A DNA stretch of 64,000 bases from Bacillota bacterium (GTDB lineage Bacteria > Armatimonadota > HRBIN16). A program made the translations under genes and the position numbers. The notes beneath the pieces are model-generated. The model ran no database searches. It was not told the DNA's origin and worked only from the letters and a program-made list of their open reading frames with translations. The first letter of the stretch is position 1; the number at the start of each line of letters is the position of its first letter. The stretch spans positions 185,093 to 249,092 of the forward strand of contig JAIMBJ010000003.1 in assembly GCA_023511455.1 (NCBI GenBank). Reading direction: 5' to 3'. Below, in pieces: positions 21,165-64,000 of this stretch.

Positions 21165-21269
21165 CCTTTGCCTCCTGCCTGTTTTCGCCAGTATAGCAGT
21201 CCAAAAGGCGGACGTCAACGAGAGGAATACTCTTGTATTTCACAGAAAATGTAGGTAGGGGTTACGCAT

Positions 21270-21440
21270 TTGAAAGACTTTTGTGAAGCTCGTGATATAA
21301 AGCGACATTCTCTGTCATTCTGAGCGAAGCGAAGAATCGCTGTTACGGCTCTGAGATGCTTCGCTGGCGCCCAGCATGACGGGACAATGTTTCCAGGGTC
21401 GCTGAAAAAGCATGGTCTGCTACGTGTTCATCGCAAGTGC
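21270..21440. repeat. Intergenic repeat element, copy A (copy B at 54560..54720)
   Basis: It shares aaagcg.cat…tcattct(g/a)agcg(a/c)agcgaagaatc … tcgctg…gctgaaaaagcatg…ttcatc…gcgt.actcctg with copy B at roughly 75% identity over about 150 nt. An internal inverted repeat is agcgaag/cttcgct. Confidence 0.45.
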
Positions 21441-21489
21441 GTAACTCCTGGCCGGATTCCGATGATAGGTACGCGACGAGAGGTGCAGC

Positions 21490-23813: not shown

Positions 23814-24644
23814 TCAAAAACCGAAAGCCAGATTGTCCAGAATGTATTTTGCCCGCGCCTCGCCAACCTCCTGATAGATTTCCAGCAGCTCTTCGTACAC
23901 ACCTTCTGTGCCCACCAGACTCCAGAACTCGTTGCCAATGAGTACTGCATCATCAAAAGGCATATAGTTTCTGGCGTATGTCCAGCGGTACTCTTCCCGA
24001 GTGCTTCCGTATGGATTGTATGCCATTGCGAAGTATGCAGATACCTGCGGAGCACGGTTCCCTGTCAGCAGATGTATTCGCAGTAGCCTCTGGGTAACCT
24101 CGAGGCATTGTCCCTTATTCGGCATCGGTGATTTAATTTCAAAGAACATTTGTGATCCGTCGTGCCGCTGCACCCACAGGTCGGCGACAACCTGCAGAGG
24201 TATCAGGTCATCCTGACGCTGTGACGCCAGTACGGTGTCCACCATGCCGTCCATCCGTGGTCGTTCTGAGGAAGCGTGTTCGAAAAGGCCTACCTGCTGC
24301 TCTATGGCTTGCAGGGAAGACTGGCTCACCTTGCCCTTGACGCGATGCCCCCGGCGTGCGTCCTTGTGAAATTGTAAAGCAATAAGACGAGCGCACTCCT
24401 CGAAAGTGGAGCCAAGTCGTGTGCTGAAACTGCGCTCAAACGCGCTGAGGCGTATGAGTTCGGCAGGTATGATCGCCTGATGAAACGGCTTCAATCTTCC
24501 CTCTGCCGACTGTTGTCTCAGATACTCGCGTACTGCTATCGAGGACGGCAGGAGTCGCTGCCGAGTCTCGTCCACCACATTAGTGATGAACGCCTCTAAG
24601 TAGCCCTGTATCCGGGCACGGGTTGTATCAGTGAGGACAGCCAT
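23814..24644 (-). CDS. Putative type II restriction endonuclease (family not recognised)
   Basis: 276 aa. It starts 3 nt after the stop of the upstream DNA methyltransferase (TAAcagATG). GC is about 50% against about 65% in the flanks. It matches no housekeeping family I recognise. Confidence 0.4.
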   Translation of the reverse strand: MAVLTDTTRARIQGYLEAFITNVVDETRQRLLPSSIAVREYLRQQSAEGRLKPFHQAIIPAELIRLSAFERSFSTRLGSTFEECARLIALQFHKDARRGHRVKGKVSQSSLQAIEQQVGLFEHASSERPRMDGMVDTVLASQRQDDLIPLQVVADLWVQRHDGSQMFFEIKSPMPNKGQCLEVTQRLLRIHLLTGNRAPQVSAYFAMAYNPYGSTREEYRWTYARNYMPFDDAVLIGNEFWSLVGTEGVYEELLEIYQEVGEARAKYILDNLAFGF

Positions 24645-24647
24645 CTG

Positions 24648-25856
24648 TTATGGGCTACGCCAGATAAAGATGGACTCGTAGAACTCGCTGGAGCGCCTTC
24701 CTGTTCGGCGGTTCACGTGCCGATGTAACACCGCTTCTACTCGCACCCCGACCATCTCCGCAATGCGACCATAAAGGTTATGTCGATCGTTTGCCACCAC
24801 AACGAGCGGCGCTCCTGATGGGGTACATTTTAGGATGCGCTGAAAAACCGTTGCGATATCCTGAACGTACTGCTGCCTTGCCTTTTCGGACGCCCCGTTT
24901 GCCGCGGCGCCAATCTCGCAGTCGCGCAGGTCGCGCAGCCCGAGCAGGTGATAGGCATAGGCGTGCTGTTCATGATAGTCAATCAATCCCACATAGGGGG
25001 GACTGGTAATTACTCCGTCTACAGGAGGAAACTGTGCCGTACGGCTATCCGCGTGGGAGATGACCACTTCCGCATCGGTGCGTACCAGGGCGTATTGCCG
25101 AACACGGTGGATCGTATCGATACTATACCGTTTGAGAAACTTAAAGGCTTCGAGGGTGGGCTCACAGACGCGACGATGCTTGTGACACCAGTAGGGAGCC
25201 GTCACTGGCTGCTTCGGAAAGTCCAGGTCATAATGCGTGGTGAGCCTTGCGGAGCGTGCTGAGCGCGACAGAATAACGTATAACAAATCTTTATATTCAT
25301 AGTCGCCCTGCTTTACAATATCACGATAGGTTAACAGCTCACGAAGTGCCTGCGGGGCGTACCACCGTTGGAGGTATTCACTGGTGGAAAACCCGTCCGT
25401 GTCGTAGATAGTGTCCTGCTGTTCCATCATCAAGGAAAGCTGGGTTGCATCCTGGGAACATGTTCGGCGATGTACTTTCTCGAGCACGTCCAGCACTTCC
25501 TTTTGCATCTGTTCGAGATGGTATCGGGTGGTTTTTGCCCGGCAGAGCATGACATTAAACGCGGAAACGTCGTAACCAACAGCATGGATACCCAGCTCAT
25601 TCGCCTGCACGAGAGTGGTACCCGAGCCGCAAAAAGGGTCCATCACAGTTTGTCCCGCACGGAAGAACTTCCGCAGAAACACTTCCACCAGCTGGGGGAT
25701 AAACTTTCCCAGATAGGGATGCAAGCGGTGCACGTGCTTGGTGCGGAGATGCTCCGGCAGGTCGCGTTCCCGCCAGTTCAAGTTGAGTGTTTCCAGCGGG
25801 GTTTCTGGCGTTACCGTCTCCGGACGAGTTGGCTCCGTATCCATCTGATGAATCAC
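24648..25856 (-). CDS. DNA amino-methyltransferase (N6-adenine or N4-cytosine, alpha class)
   Basis: AdoMet motif I DPFCGSGTT near the N-terminus and catalytic motif IV SPPY near the C-terminus. The order I-TRD-IV indicates alpha class. GC is low. Confidence 0.8.
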   Translation of the reverse strand: MIHQMDTEPTRPETVTPETPLETLNLNWRERDLPEHLRTKHVHRLHPYLGKFIPQLVEVFLRKFFRAGQTVMDPFCGSGTTLVQANELGIHAVGYDVSAFNVMLCRAKTTRYHLEQMQKEVLDVLEKVHRRTCSQDATQLSLMMEQQDTIYDTDGFSTSEYLQRWYAPQALRELLTYRDIVKQGDYEYKDLLYVILSRSARSARLTTHYDLDFPKQPVTAPYWCHKHRRVCEPTLEAFKFLKRYSIDTIHRVRQYALVRTDAEVVISHADSRTAQFPPVDGVITSPPYVGLIDYHEQHAYAYHLLGLRDLRDCEIGAAANGASEKARQQYVQDIATVFQRILKCTPSGAPLVVVANDRHNLYGRIAEMVGVRVEAVLHRHVNRRTGRRSSEFYESIFIWRSP

Positions 25857-31148: not shown

Positions 31149-31235
31149 TGGTGCCGACGGGGGGACTCGAACCCCCAAGCCCGTTCGGGCACTAGACCCT
31201 GAACCTAGCGTGTTTACCAATTTCACCACGTCGGC
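31149..31235 (-). tRNA. tRNA-Leu (anticodon CAG), long variable arm
   Basis: The minus strand reads GCCGACGTGGTGAAATTGGTAAACACGCTAGGTTCAGGGTCTAGTGCCCGAACGGGCTTGGGGGTTCGAGTCCCCCCGTCGGCACCA. It has a 7-bp acceptor stem, D-arm, anticodon loop TTCAGGG, class-II variable arm, TTCGAGT T-loop and encoded CCA. Confidence 0.85.
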
Positions 31236-33317: not shown

Positions 33318-34177
33318 AGCTCCTGCCACAGCGCACGGTAGTAGCGCATGAAGCGCTCCGTATCCGCCACACTGCTCGTCTCCAGCCCCGGTATCTCGGC
33401 GAGGGTGTATCGGTCGTAGCCGATACCCTGGAGCAGGCTGAACAGCTCGCGCCATGGATAGCTGCTGGTCAGCTCGGTGATGTGACAGGAGCGGATGTAC
33501 TGTTTCAACAGGTCGAAACTCTGCCGTACACTGCGGTCTTTCACATCGGTGGGGTTGGAGTTCCACGTGATGCCCACGCTGGGATGCCCACAGTGTTGCA
33601 TGATACGGGCGATGTTGGGTGGCTCCTGTGTACCCTGACCATGCACCTCCAGCCAGATTTCCACGCCGTTGTCCGCACCAGCCTTACCGCACTCGATGAG
33701 TGCCTTGCCGATTTGCTCCAGCGTTTTCTCCACCGGCACGCCTTCGGGCAGGGCATTCGGACGAACCTTCACCCCTTTCGCACCGACATCCCGTGCCAGT
33801 TCGCAGAAGCGTTTACAGGTCTCAATGTTCTCGCGCACGACGGCGGGGTCTGGAGAGTGGAACTCACACACCGTGCCCAGCCCCCACAGTACGATGCCCG
33901 AATCCTCGAATAGTCGGCGCACCTCTTTGCGCCGGTCGGCATCGATATCGGGTTCCACACCGTGCGCATGGGTGGTACGCAACTCAACGGCGGCGAAACC
34001 GGTGGCTTTGCACCGCGCCAGGATGGTGGGCACGTCCCATGCCCGCGCCAGGTTGTAGGTCACCAGCCCCAGCTTGAAGGCAGGTGGGCGTGGCGCAGGT
34101 TGTGGTGCAGAACCGGAAGCAAACGCGGCGGCTCCAAACATCATCATGCTCCCCTGAATGAATTCGCGTCGATTCAT
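33308..34177 (-). CDS. Tat-secreted sugar phosphate isomerase/epimerase (xylose isomerase-like TIM barrel)
   Basis: Twin-arginine signal MNRREFIQGSMMMFGAAAFASG, then the AP-endonuclease-2/xylose-isomerase-like fold. Confidence 0.65.
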   Translation of the reverse strand: MNRREFIQGSMMMFGAAAFASGSAPQPAPRPPAFKLGLVTYNLARAWDVPTILARCKATGFAAVELRTTHAHGVEPDIDADRRKEVRRLFEDSGIVLWGLGTVCEFHSPDPAVVRENIETCKRFCELARDVGAKGVKVRPNALPEGVPVEKTLEQIGKALIECGKAGADNGVEIWLEVHGQGTQEPPNIARIMQHCGHPSVGITWNSNPTDVKDRSVRQSFDLLKQYIRSCHITELTSSYPWRELFSLLQGIGYDRYTLAEIPGLETSSVADTERFMRYYRALWQELCR

Positions 34178-54509: not shown

Positions 54510-54559
54510 GGTTGCTCACACTGTGTTTCTCTAATTGTGGTATGTAGTCAAGAGACTCT

Positions 54560-54720
54560 TCATGAGTTTGCGTTACAAAGCGTCATCAATTATCATTCTA
54601 AGCGCAGCGAAGAATCTCAGACACCCTTCGCTAACGCTCAGCTTCACAGGGAATTGTCGCTGTGGTTGCTGAAAAAGCATGACCCGCTACCTATTCATCT
54701 CACACGGCGTGACTCCTGTT
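54560..54720. repeat. Intergenic repeat element, copy B (copy A at 21270..21440)
   Basis: See copy A. It sits in the divergent spacer between the GGDEF gene and hypE. Confidence 0.45.
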
Positions 54721-54897
54721 CAATATGGATTATAGGCTTAACTGCCGAAATGTTTAGAGGGCGCCAATTAGAACTGGTGAGTAGACTGGGCAGATGCGTC
54801 ACGGCGTCTGTTCCTCTGCGGCAACGACCCGTTGCAGGACGAACTCACTGTCACCCCGTATTATTCACAGTAACAAAGGGCTAGCGGTTCAGGCGTG

Positions 54898-55959
54898 ATG
54901 GAAGAAAAAGGCATGGAGACATTGACGTTGTCCTGCCCCATCCCCATCCAGCAATATCCGACAGTGGTGATGGCACACGGGGGAGGCGGCAGGCTGATGC
55001 ATCAGCTGATTGAGAAGATGTTTGTCGCCACTTTCGGGGGCGGGGCGTTGCAGGCACGCCACGATAGCACACTCCTGGAGTTGCCCCGCGCGCGTTTGGC
55101 GTTCACGACCGACTCGTACGTGGTGCGTCCCCTCTTCTTTCCGGGCGGCGACATCGGCAAACTGGCGGTGTACGGCACGGTGAACGATTTGGCGATGAGC
55201 GGCGCGCGCCCCCTGTATCTCAGCCTGGGCATGATTCTGGAAGAGGGTCTGCCGATGGAGACGCTGTGGCAGGTGGTGGTGTCGATCCAGCAAGCAGCGC
55301 AGGCGGCGCGCGTGCAGATTGTCTCGGGCGACACGAAGGTGGTGGACCGGGGCAAAGGCGACGGTGTCTTTCTGAACACATCGGGCGTGGGCGTCATCGA
55401 ACATGACCTGACGATTGCGCCACAATCGGTGCGGGTGGGCGACGCGCTGGTGCTGAGCGGCGATATCGGCAGGCATGGCATCGCGGTGATGGCGGTGCGC
55501 GAGGGACTGCAGTTCGAGAGCCAGATTGAGAGCGACTGCGCGCCGCTGGCGGAACCGGTGCTGGCGTTGATTGCGGAAGGCATTGAGGTACACTGTTTGC
55601 GGGACCTGACGCGCGGCGGGCTGGCAAGCGCGGTGGTGGAAATCGCGGAATCGGCGGGAGTAGGGATTCAACTGGAGGAGGCGCGTATCCCTGTGCGCGA
55701 GGACGTGCGCGGCGCGTGCGAGATACTGGGCTTTGACCCTCTGTATGTGGCAAACGAGGGGCGGTTTGTGGCGTTCGTGCCCGCTGCGCAGGCAGAGAAG
55801 ACGGTGGAAGTGCTGCGCCGCTTCGCCGTCAGCGCGACCGCCGACGTCGTTGGAGAGGTAACCGCCTCGCCGGAGGGCACGGTGGTGCTGAAAAGTGTCA
55901 TCGGCACCTCGCGGGTGGTGGACATGCTCAGCGGCGAGCAGCTGCCGAGGATATGTTGA
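54898..55959 (+). CDS. hypE: Hydrogenase maturation factor HypE
   Basis: AHGGGG N-terminal motif, AIR-synthase-like fold and C-terminal PRIC (Cys). The start is uncertain among the GTG at 54895 and the ATGs at 54898 and 54913. Confidence 0.85.
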
Positions 55960-61744: not shown

Positions 61745-64000
61745 ATGGCAGACGTAGAGACCCCAGTCACGCCGGGCAGCGATAACGAGAAGGACCTGCG
61801 GATGGAAATCCCGGAAGTGCTGAACCTCCTACCACTTCGGGATACGGTGGTGTTTCCGGTGCTTATCGTGCCCATCGCTGTAGGCAGAGAGAGCTCCATC
61901 AAACTCATCGACGACTCGGTGGTGGGAGGCAACCGGATTATCGGTGTGGTGGCGATGAAAGACCCCACCGTCGAGAACCCCACGCTGGATGATGTGTATC
62001 GGGTGGGCACGGCGGTGGTCATCCGCATGATGGGCAAAATGCCGGATGGCATCCGCCTGATTGCTCAGGGCATCAGCCGTATTGAGATACTGGAGGCAGT
62101 GCAGAGGCAACCCTACCTGCGCGTGCGGGTGCGCGTGGTACAGGAGCCGACACAAATCAGCGAGGAAGACAGCCTGGAGATTGAGGCACTGCGCCGGAAC
62201 ATCGCCGCCGCTTTCCAGAAGGTGGTGCAGCTGTCGCCGAACCTTCCTGACGAGCTGGAGGGCATCGCACTCAACGTCACCGAGCCTCATGTACTGACCG
62301 ACCTGGTCGCGGCGCATTTGCCTGTCTCTATCGCTGACAAGCAGAAGATTCTGGAGACCTTTGACCTTAAGGAGCGAATGCGCCTGTTGCTGCAGATGCT
62401 GGTGCGAGAAGTGGAAGTGCTGGAGCTGGGCAGCAAGCTGCAGTCGGAGGTGCATTCGGAGCTCAGCAAGACACAGCGCGAGTACTACCTGCGTGAACAG
62501 CTCAAAGCCATCCAGCGCGAGCTGGGCGAGATGGACGAGAACATGGCGCAGATCGAGGAGCTGCGCCAGAAGATTACCGAAGCCAAGATGCCTCCCGAGG
62601 CGGAGAAAGAGGCTCTGCGCGAGCTGGACAGGCTGTCGCGTATCCCCTCTGCTTCGCCCGAATACACCGTCGCGCGCACATACATCGAGACCATGGTCGC
62701 GCTGCCCTGGAGCATCTCCACCGAGGACAATCTGGACATCTCGCAGGTGCGACAGGTGCTGGACGAAGACCACTACGGGCTGGAGAAGGTCAAGGAGCGT
62801 ATTCTGGAGTATCTCGCGGTGCGCAAGTTCAAGACCGAAGGCACCATGCGCCAGCCAATCCTGTGTCTGGTGGGTCCGCCGGGCGTGGGGAAGACCAGTT
62901 TAGGTCGCTCAATTGCTCGTGCGCTGGGCAGGAAGTTCGTGCGTATCTCACTGGGCGGCATCCGCGATGAGGCGGAGATTCGTGGACACCGTCGCACCTA
63001 CATCGGTGCACTGCCCGGACAGATTATTCAGGGTATCCGACGGGCAGGCTCCAACAACCCCGTCTTTATGCTGGATGAGATAGACAAGGTAGGGGCGGAC
63101 TTCCGCGGCGACCCGTCCGCTGCGCTTCTGGAAGCACTGGACCCCGAGCAGAACAGCCAGTTCCGCGACCACTATCTGGATGTGCCTTTTGACCTTTCGA
63201 AGGTGCTGTTCATCACCACTGCCAACGTGCTGGATACCATCCTGCCGCCGCTGCGCGACCGTATGGAGGTCATCGAAATCCCCGGTTACACTGAGGATGA
63301 GAAGCTGGAGATTGCGAAGCGCCACCTCATCCCACGCCAGATGCAGGAGCACGGGCTGAACGAGGAAGAGCATATCCAGTGGACAGAGGAGGGCATCCGC
63401 GCCATTATTCGGGGTTACACGCGCGAGGCAGGGGTGCGCAATCTGGAGCGGGAAATCGCCTCCGTGTGCCGCAAGGTGGCGCGCCGCTTTGCGGAAGGGG
63501 AGACCGGGAAGGTGGTGGTAGACGCTGCCAAAGTGGAGGAGTTTCTTGGCGCGCCCCGCTTCGAGTTCGAAGAGATTTCCGAGCGCACCTCGCAGCCCGG
63601 TGTGGCGGTTGGGCTGGTGTGGACGCCCGTCGGTGGGGACATCGTGTTCGTGGAGGCCACGCTGATGCCGGGCAACAAAGGGCTGTTGCTGACCGGCCAG
63701 CTGGGCGACGTGATGCGCGAGTCGGCGCAGACCGCGCTGAGCTACATCCGCAGCCACGCAAAGGAGATGGGCATAGACCCCAGCTTCTTCGAGAAGCATG
63801 ATATTCACATCCACGTACCCGCTGGGGCGATACCGAAGGATGGGCCTTCGGCAGGCATCACGATGGCAACTGCGCTGGCATCACTGCTTACGGGCAGGTG
63901 TGTGAAGCCGCGCGTGGCGATGACAGGAGAGATCACGCTGTCTGGACGGGTGCTGCCGGTCGGTGGCATTAAGGAGAAGGTACTGGCGGCGCACCGTGCA
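61745..64000 (+). CDS. lon: ATP-dependent Lon protease (3' end beyond the window)
   Basis: LON N-domain, Walker [10 protein letters not shown], and a proteolytic domain with catalytic Ser in PKDGPSAG. The open frame continues to the window edge. Confidence 0.9.

Follow-up and report, generated by a model that had tools for sequence, protein, structure and literature searches.

Two diverged copies of a non-coding repeat

We analysed a 64-kb stretch of DNA (the window) which carries two diverged copies of the same repeat, each located in a divergent promoter region. Copy A faces a gene for a URO-D-family protein, and copy B lies in the spacer between a GGDEF gene and hypE. A blastn search, in which the spacer containing copy A was compared with the whole window, aligns positions 21296-21450 with positions 54574-54718 (E=2.2e-12, 107 of 156 positions identical), and the reciprocal blastn search agrees with this match. 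The similarity between the regions at 21.27-21.44 kb and 54.56-54.72 kb, which had been claimed in an earlier note on this DNA, is therefore real. Moreover, all the collinear blocks listed there were found, including tcattct(g/a)agcg(a/c)agcgaagaatc, the agcgaag/cttcgct inverted repeat, gctgaaaaagcatg, ttcatc and actcctg. The identity of about 75% given in the note also holds: it is 69% if one 11-nt gap in the blastn alignment is included, approximately 74% over the ungapped columns and 76% when calculated as the mean column identity of a MAFFT alignment. The length of about 150 nt, however, does not hold, since the full units are longer and measure 193 nt for copy A (21257-21449) and 182 nt for copy B (54537-54718). 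These extents rest on an alignment of the family, on HMM matches and on an empty site in one relative. No third copy was found above noise when the copy-A spacer was used as the blastn query against the 64-kb window.

The GC content of the two copies is 0.50 (copy A) and 0.48 (copy B), and that of their left modules 0.40, compared to 0.596 for the window, in agreement with the AT-rich spacers described before. No ORF is conserved between copies A and B: the only short ORF which the other copies have in common is out of frame in copy B owing to a 1-nt indel. This agrees with the previous statement that neither copy has a convincing ORF.

Table 1. Features of the two copies of the repeat in the window.
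Feature	Position	Strand	Basis or remark
Copy A, left terminal inverted repeat AGGGGTTACGCATTTG	21257-21272	+	pairs with 21434-21449 at 14/16 positions (88%)
Copy A, left module, AT-rich (GC 0.40)	21257-21313	+	nhmmer left-module profile, 21258-21310, E=3e-11
Copy A, forward Ssn-related hairpin motif GTCATTCTGAGCGAAGCGAAGAATC	21314-21338	+	structure-aware scan
Copy A, spacer between the two inverted motifs	21339-21354	+	holds most of the internal stretch GTTACGGCTCTGAGATG (21342-21358), which resembles a terminal inverted repeat
Copy A, inverted Ssn-related motif GTCATGCTGGGCGCCAGCGAAGCATC	21355-21380	-	stem ATGCT/AGCAT, compensatory variant; structure-aware scan
Copy A, right module	21381-21449	+	nhmmer right-module profile, 21353-21449, E=3e-28
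Copy A, right terminal inverted repeat CAAGTGCGTAACTCCT	21434-21449	+	ends the right module
Copy A, about 10 extra bases GGCCGGATTC	21450-21460	+	also absent from the empty site in L076 (alignment)
Copy B, left module	54537-54591	+	nhmmer left-module match, 54537-54588, E=8e-13
Copy B, forward motif ATCATTCTAAGCGCAGCGAAGAATC	54592-54616	+	first base A, conserved G replaced
Copy B, decayed inverted motif GTGAAGCTGAGCGTTAGCGAAGGGTG	54622-54647	-	alignment with L079
Copy B, right module	54648-54718	+	nhmmer right-module match, 54620-54718, E=3e-26

The left terminal repeat of copy A is an exact match to the family pattern AGGRRTKACGCAKYTG. When copy A is compared with the empty site in a relative (L076), the first base of the insertion falls within a few bases of position 21260. 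In the forward motif, the stem ATTCT/AGAAT surrounds a GCGAAGC core, and together the forward and the inverted motif form the long central hairpin of copy A. A second inverted repeat is found inside the unit: positions 21342-21358 are 71% complementary to positions 21429-21445, and a like arrangement is present in a copy from a metagenome (L082). Considering the window and L082 (848-864), this internal stretch is 71-76% complementary to the right end, and the element may be built from a repeated subunit consisting of a terminal-repeat-like sequence plus a hairpin. The extra bases which follow the right terminal repeat have no counterpart in the other copies of the family alignment, and it is uncertain whether they are part of the element.

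In copy B no terminal inverted repeat was detected, and the terminal repeat has decayed. The forward motif of this copy has ATC for GTC, and the G is kept in its orthologue in a relative (L079). At the position of the inverted motif, the same orthologue carries 87 extra bases, which comprise a further forward and a further inverted unit. Judging from this alignment, the decayed inverted motif of copy B looks like a fusion of two inverted units that are still present in the orthologue.

A family with at least four independent insertion sites

The earlier note had left it to a database search whether the repeat has more than two copies, and it does. A search of JGI metagenome contigs, using a pattern derived from the 3' block, recovered four stretches, one of which is the window's own locus A (L083) and another the orthologue of locus B (L081). 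The two others are extra independent copies, termed copy C (L082, 720-956) and copy D (L084). Copies A to D and the orthologue of copy B in L079 were aligned, and profiles of both flanking modules were used for searches. The family has at least four independent insertion sites. Its elements are 182-237 nt in length and have no conserved ORF, and the right modules of the five copies are 74-86% identical. Copy D is truncated at its 5' end: it consists of the right module and the tail of one hairpin unit only, and its left module is missing. The number of hairpin units is two each in copies A and B, four in L079 and three plus a partial one in copy C, and copy D has a fragment only. Every copy, the truncated one included, keeps at least part of the inverted unit that adjoins the right module.

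The terminal inverted repeats are 16 nt long and 88% complementary in copy A, and 17 nt long and 82% complementary in copy C (L082 720-736 and 940-956). Copy C is bracketed by the direct repeat TCTGTT, or ATCTGTT if the end of the element is taken one base earlier, which is a possible target duplication. No target-site duplication is recognisable at copy A, where the empty site was used for the comparison, or at copy B. The check for such duplications suggested in the note thus gives a candidate in one of the three full copies. When the whole unit is folded as single-stranded DNA it pairs from end to end, with the central hairpin in the middle (z=-3.4 for copy A and -3.75 for copy C), and none of 200 shuffled sequences folds as well.

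No autonomous element, no transposase gene and no longer element with the same ends was found in the 96 loci examined, where the terminal-repeat pattern occurs only at the element copies; four later loci were scanned with the module profiles only. PLSDB plasmids gave no blastn match to either copy. A scan of contigs from GTDB representatives, among which the source species is not included, with the pattern GCGAAGAATC-N40-70-GCTGAAAAAGCATG produced two matches, in MAGs of Flammeovirgaceae and Victivallales. Both are located inside coding sequence, show no other similarity to the element and were rejected as chance matches. So far, the family has been seen only in the Armatimonadota-like lineage to which the window belongs.

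On the minus strand of the right end (21416-21449 and 54683-54718), a Shine-Dalgarno-like AGGAG is followed, after 13 nt, by the three-codon ORF ATG AAC ACG TAG (ATG AAT AGG TAG in copy B). Both the site and the mini-ORF are kept in all copies. This conservation is in part due to ascertainment, since part of the sequence lies in the pattern by which the copies were found.

Presence and absence of the element in relatives

We compared both loci with the orthologous sites of relatives. At locus A, a relative whose URO-D-family protein is 96% identical (L076) has kept both flanking genes, but the spacer between them measures 126 nt and the element is absent. In the alignment, the window has about 200 extra bases, extending from approximately 21261 to 21460. 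A further relative with an 85% identical protein (L077) also has no copy of the element at this locus. At locus B the element is present in L079 (HypE 92% identical), together with the 87 extra bases that amount to two more hairpin units. A named Armatimonadota MAG (L080, HypE 86%), in contrast, has a GGDEF-hypE spacer of 124 nt without the element. On these alignments, both window copies are insertion polymorphisms and not a conserved feature of their loci.

A comparison of copy B with the L079 orthologue gives 81% identity for the element, 79.5% for the spacer next to it and 87-89% for the coding flanks. The right module taken separately is 77% identical, which equals the value of the neighbouring spacer DNA. 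Beyond the hairpin cores no constraint is apparent, and the element drifts near-neutrally, like ordinary spacer DNA.

The nearest named relatives of two of the window proteins are from Armatimonadota MAGs. A HypE sequence at NCBI that is 100% identical to the one of the window (P0122) is from a MAG deposited as 'Firmicutes bacterium'. The next-closest named HypE relatives (86-87%; P0132, P0136, P0139 and P0151) are all from Armatimonadota, and the Firmicutes label is probably wrong.

The hairpin motif is related to the repeats of Ssn nucleases

The members of the Ssn family (cd10448) are single-domain GIY-YIG proteins of approximately 94 amino acids that act as site-specific nucleases on single-strand DNA (Chenal et al. 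2025, PMC11893778). Their binding site is an oriented hairpin repeat, and the cut is made a few bases upstream. The Neisseria nuclease is SsnA, for which the catalytic residues Y6, Y17 and E64 were mutated, and the repeat is the NTS, CGTCATTCCCGCGMAVGCGGGAATCYRG, which is present in hundreds of copies per genome (PMC11893778). The GTC of the repeat is the most important part for cleavage and the trailing C for binding, and typically Ssn genes have the repeat on both sides (PMC11893778).

Read in the frame of the NTS, the window units show GTC, a stem that starts with ATTC, a small GC-clamped loop, a complementary stem ending in GAAT, and then C. The general layout of the motif in the element is GTC, a 5-bp stem, the loop GAGCGNAGCGA, the stem again and C. 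Oriented hairpins of this kind are found at 21314-21338 (GTC-ATTCT-loop-AGAAT-C) and, on the minus strand, at 21355-21380 (GTC-ATGCT-loop-AGCAT-C). Among the loci examined, the 5-bp stems vary in a compensatory manner (ATTCT/AGAAT, ATCCT/AGGAT, ACCCT/AGGGT, ATCCC/GGGAT and ATGCT/AGCAT). However, the published search pattern, HGTCWYN(0-2)YYVSBRHN(0-5)WNVSBRGN(0-2)RNCYNB, which accepts two instances of the NTS consensus, rejects both window units. Its sole match in the window (33458-33487, minus strand) is an unrelated sequence. The window units are rejected because their stem is interrupted by G/A mismatches, and therefore we term the motif an Ssn-related-motif variant and not a textbook member.

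The window contains three intact units and one decayed unit, compared to 0.15 expected from simulated sequence. An extra flank of approximately 17 kb from the same contig has no further hairpin units or modules, and in the window plus this flank (about 81 kb in total) there is no Ssn or GIY-YIG gene. Single hairpin units are weak if nearest-neighbour DNA energies are applied.

What the earlier note did not recognise is that the core hairpin belongs to a motif family which is found in many different bacteria and in phage-like contigs. In IMG/VR contigs, exact matches to the 24-nt core TCATTCTRAGCGMAGCGAAGAATC number 84, distributed over 71 stretches and in unrelated contexts; some have an inverted partner at a distance of 20-100 nt and many are single. 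In these virus-classified contigs (L003-L073), the core is often a single unit placed right before a ribosome-binding site and a start codon, as in ...GAATCTCATAAAGAAGGAGAAGAATATGACAAAG of several related contigs, and phage-like examples are found in L012 (5002-5025), L026 (4233-4256), L029 (3834-3857) and L071 (8978-9001). A GIY-YIG gene is near only one of the 84 matches (L062), where the core lies 63 nt upstream of an 89-codon GIY-YIG ORF (PF01541, E=2e-12), after which a pair of inverted units follows. Used as a single query in the viral contigs, the L062 protein found only itself. A PDB sequence search with this nuclease gave nothing, and searching the literature for the motif as a text string gave nothing either.

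At three independent loci (L062, L086 and L088), the identical 25-mer GTCATTCTGAGCGAAGCGAAGAATC precedes a GIY-YIG gene by approximately 55-63 nt. The proteins of L086, L088 and a further locus, L089, are homologues of the L062 protein. In L086, a Verrucomicrobiae MAG, it is located about 55 nt before the start codon, and an inverted copy (1313-1337) overlaps the stop codon. In L088 it also precedes the start codon by about 55 nt, and at the 3' end of the annotated gene only a remnant, GCTCAGAATGAC, is found. At L089, the GIY-YIG gene is preceded by a one-base variant and followed by another stem variant. The hairpin-flanked proteins are approximately 93-111 amino acids in length, and their Tyr7, Tyr17 and Glu64 match Y6, Y17 and E64 of SsnA; their putative assignment to cd10448 is based on this size and on these residues. 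Many of 120 homologues end with ...DSSLRSE, which is the inverted motif read as protein (e.g. P0245 and P0246), because many Ssn-type genes have their stop codon within the inverted hairpin unit. In other frames, the hairpin is read into peptide tails such as FFASLRMT. Due to such hairpin-encoded tails, gene calling over isolated units would be expected to yield ORFs that resemble conserved 'hypothetical proteins'. In two different genomes (L086 1001-2336 and L088 1001-1898), the hairpin-flanked GIY-YIG gene is located just upstream of a convergent RNase E/G gene. This conserved synteny suggests that at this locus the GIY-YIG gene is resident and not freely moving.

A probable mobile mosaic repeat and its alternatives

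The two loci are probably diverged copies of a non-coding insertion element of approximately 190 bp that carries Ssn-related hairpins, in other words a mosaic repeat resembling MITEs and NIMEs. The earlier note had offered three readings, a MITE-like mobile repeat, a small structured RNA and a shared regulatory leader, and only the first of these is supported. It is backed by the absence of the element at the orthologous sites of relatives, the terminal inverted repeats in copies A and C and the direct repeat at copy C. The variable number of internal hairpin units and the two independent metagenome copies support it further.

The element is laid out as a terminal inverted repeat, an AT-rich left module, one or more pairs of oppositely oriented hairpin motifs, a right module and a second terminal inverted repeat. 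When the DNA becomes single-stranded, during replication, repair or DNA uptake, the motifs may fold into hairpins. By analogy to the NTS and SsnA of Neisseria, a cognate Ssn-type GIY-YIG nuclease would bind these hairpins and cut a few bases upstream. Such a nuclease might be encoded elsewhere in the genome, or might once have been encoded there; the approximately 81 kb examined contain no such gene. The element could have spread by transposition or by recombination at the hairpins, as REP/BIME, NIME and MITE sequences do, or alternatively a conventional transposase could have moved it by way of its terminal repeats. The fused inverted unit of copy B and the additional pair of L079 may both have arisen when units recombined with each other. 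If the neighbouring divergent promoters are affected at all, this would be incidental, and nothing suggests that the window copies have a function for the adjacent genes. With three intact units and one decayed unit in approximately 81 kb, the density of the motif is far below that in Neisseria.

The ends of the element are 55-70 nt away from the hairpins, and thus cutting by an Ssn nuclease alone does not explain them. This is the main gap in the mosaic-repeat explanation, and because of it we keep, as a possible although rather unlikely account, an ordinary transposase-driven MITE, in which the hairpin motifs are secondary passengers unrelated to mobility. The distance of the ends from the hairpins fits such a MITE, as do the 16-17-nt terminal repeats of copies A and C, the 6-7-bp direct repeat flanking copy C, the small size, the lack of an ORF, the empty site in a relative and a number of hairpin units that varies independently of the modules. 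However, no copy has entirely lost the inverted unit that adjoins the right module, the loci examined contain neither a transposase gene nor a longer element with these ends, and the duplication is absent at copies A and B. The two explanations overlap and differ only in the enzyme which would move the unit.

It is improbable that there is an autonomous transposon which carries an Ssn-type GIY-YIG gene between these hairpins, and that the unit is its non-autonomous form. If this were true, the insertion polymorphisms would be the first footprint of hairpin-directed, GIY-YIG-driven transposition; an 'IS-like' idea was raised, but not tested, in the Ssn paper (PMC11893778). Ssn-linked hairpin repeats have been described only in 2025, and the present case offers dated events in which a defined unit was gained or lost among close relatives: at 96% protein identity the site is empty in one relative, and at 92% another has two additional hairpin units. 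Moreover, the motif variant is missed by the published search pattern although it flanks Ssn-type genes. For annotation, GTCATTCTGAGCG...GAATC hairpins and ...DSSLRSE tails mark repeat DNA, not genes or RNAs.

We consider it very unlikely that the repeat is a shared cis-regulatory module, i.e. a promoter, operator or leader, for the flanking divergent genes. Both window copies are indeed located in divergent promoter regions, all four independent copies have their right end turned towards a plus-strand gene start, and transcription from a promoter-like minus-strand site (54756-54729) would pass through copy B in the direction of the GGDEF gene. However, the downstream genes are unrelated (a URO-D-family gene, hypE and genes for a membrane protein and for a large protein of unknown family), and the distance to their starts varies from approximately 25 to approximately 180 nt. 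Moreover, the orthologous genes in L076, L077 and L080 lack the element, which drifts like the neighbouring spacer and is no more conserved than it, and no sigma-70-like site is found inside the element. The regulatory leader of the note is thus not supported.

There is likewise very little to be said for a truncated Ssn gene cassette, in which a GIY-YIG gene behind the hairpins would have decayed to its first ten codons. A candidate mini-ORF of the form M-x-x-Y-V-F-I-A-S/T-A-stop is present in the right module (21404-21436); it begins 23 nt past the inverted unit and resembles the N-terminus of the nuclease (KTYHVYMMASA in L062), and at the DNA level TACGTGTTCATCGCAAGTGCG can be compared with TACCATGTCTACATCATGGCAAGTGCA in L088. 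However, a profile of 120 Ssn-type homologues scores nothing there in any copy. The unit adjacent to the gene is forward in real cassettes and inverted here, and all copies stop at one point, a terminal inverted repeat, and not at varied truncation points. Finally, third codon positions show no excess of differences between copies, copy B contains a frameshift and there is no ATG in L079. The null result of the 120-homologue profile and the wrong orientation of the hairpin led us to reject the right module as a remnant of the 5' end of an Ssn gene. The minus-strand ORFs starting with MLFQRPW... and MLFQQPQ... were also discarded, as they are not conserved: their frame differs after the 11-nt indel, and the ATG is missing in L079. 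Their only profile match is the hairpin-encoded DSSLRSE tail (5 bits).

Least likely is a small structured RNA gene, or gene family, transcribed from the spacers: while there is a long hairpin in the sequence, the plus-strand RNA fold of copy B reaches z=-2.0 and the right module is 74-86% identical across four independent copies, the Rfam scan of both spacers returned no family at the gathering score and only noise even at E<=10, and RNAalifold detected only weak structures in the right module, with an unfavourable covariation term and no pair that had changed on both sides on either strand. The RNA folds of the first-aligned stretches of 150 and 145 nt are unremarkable (z -0.6 to -2.0), and no promoter or terminator site, as defined by sigma-70-type and intrinsic-terminator consensus patterns only, is located inside either element. 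Moreover, the divergence of the orthologous copy is that of neutral spacer, orthologues do not agree in their number of hairpin units, and one copy lacks its 5' part.

Comparison with known repeat systems

The motif shares with the NTS and other Ssn-related motifs (PMC11893778) the oriented GTC, the short stem that starts with ATTC, the GC-clamped loop, the complementary stem and the C. Both are intergenic, and in other genomes small single-domain GIY-YIG genes have the identical motif on either side. In the window, however, the stem has 5 bp and is interrupted by tandem G/A mismatches around the GCGAAGC core, the published pattern fails, and there is no Ssn gene near the two copies. Furthermore, the window motifs appear to be low in copy number and are embedded in a larger unit with terminal repeats.

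In NIMEs, dRS3 hairpin repeats flank RS modules of 50-150 bp; they have been described only in Neisseria, where they form long arrays (PMC1797815). As in NIMEs, hairpins of the same family alternate with repeated modules of lower GC content, are located beside and not inside genes, and show the alternating orientation of a mosaic (PMC1797815). The number of units in the array differs as well, between strains in the case of NIMEs and between orthologous sites here. In contrast to NIMEs, the element has one or two hairpin pairs per unit, belongs to a different phylum and has 16-nt terminal inverted repeats.

REP/BIME sequences with their IS200/IS605-like RAYT transposases also are short extragenic hairpins in alternating orientation which are tied to a small, hairpin-flanked nuclease gene, and there too recognition is thought to occur on single-stranded DNA, which makes them a functional analogue. 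However, the nuclease here is of the GIY-YIG type and not an HUH tyrosine transposase, the two motifs are unrelated, and Ssn-related motifs are not known to be mobile. Finally, the element resembles MITEs such as the Correia element in its size of approximately 190 bp, its non-coding nature, its terminal inverted repeats, its overall palindromic fold and its location in promoter regions, as well as in its presence/absence polymorphism and one candidate target duplication. It differs from them in that no parent insertion sequence is known, the duplication is found at one copy only and the core consists of Ssn-type hairpins.

Other features of the window

A good sigma-70-like site (TAAACA, 16 nt, TATAAT) is found on the minus strand at 54729-54756, immediately beyond the right end of copy B and directed towards the GGDEF gene. 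The GGDEF mRNA may start at this site and carry the whole of copy B in a leader of approximately 220 nt. On the other side of copy B, the start of hypE is ambiguous (54895-54997): gene callers place it at approximately 54997 on identical contigs (320 amino acids), and close HypE homologues have 347-353 amino acids, which is consistent with a start near 54895-54913. For the last gene of the window (62948-63814), the look-up gave no record. Rfam matches the window only once, at a tRNA gene whose variable arm is long (31152-31235, minus strand; 54.6 bits). Finally, a gene for a HinfI-type restriction endonuclease is located beside a gene for an N6/N4 DNA methyltransferase at approximately 23814-25856 (L001 12325-14367). 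The two genes are likely a type II restriction-modification pair, approximately 2 kb away from copy A.
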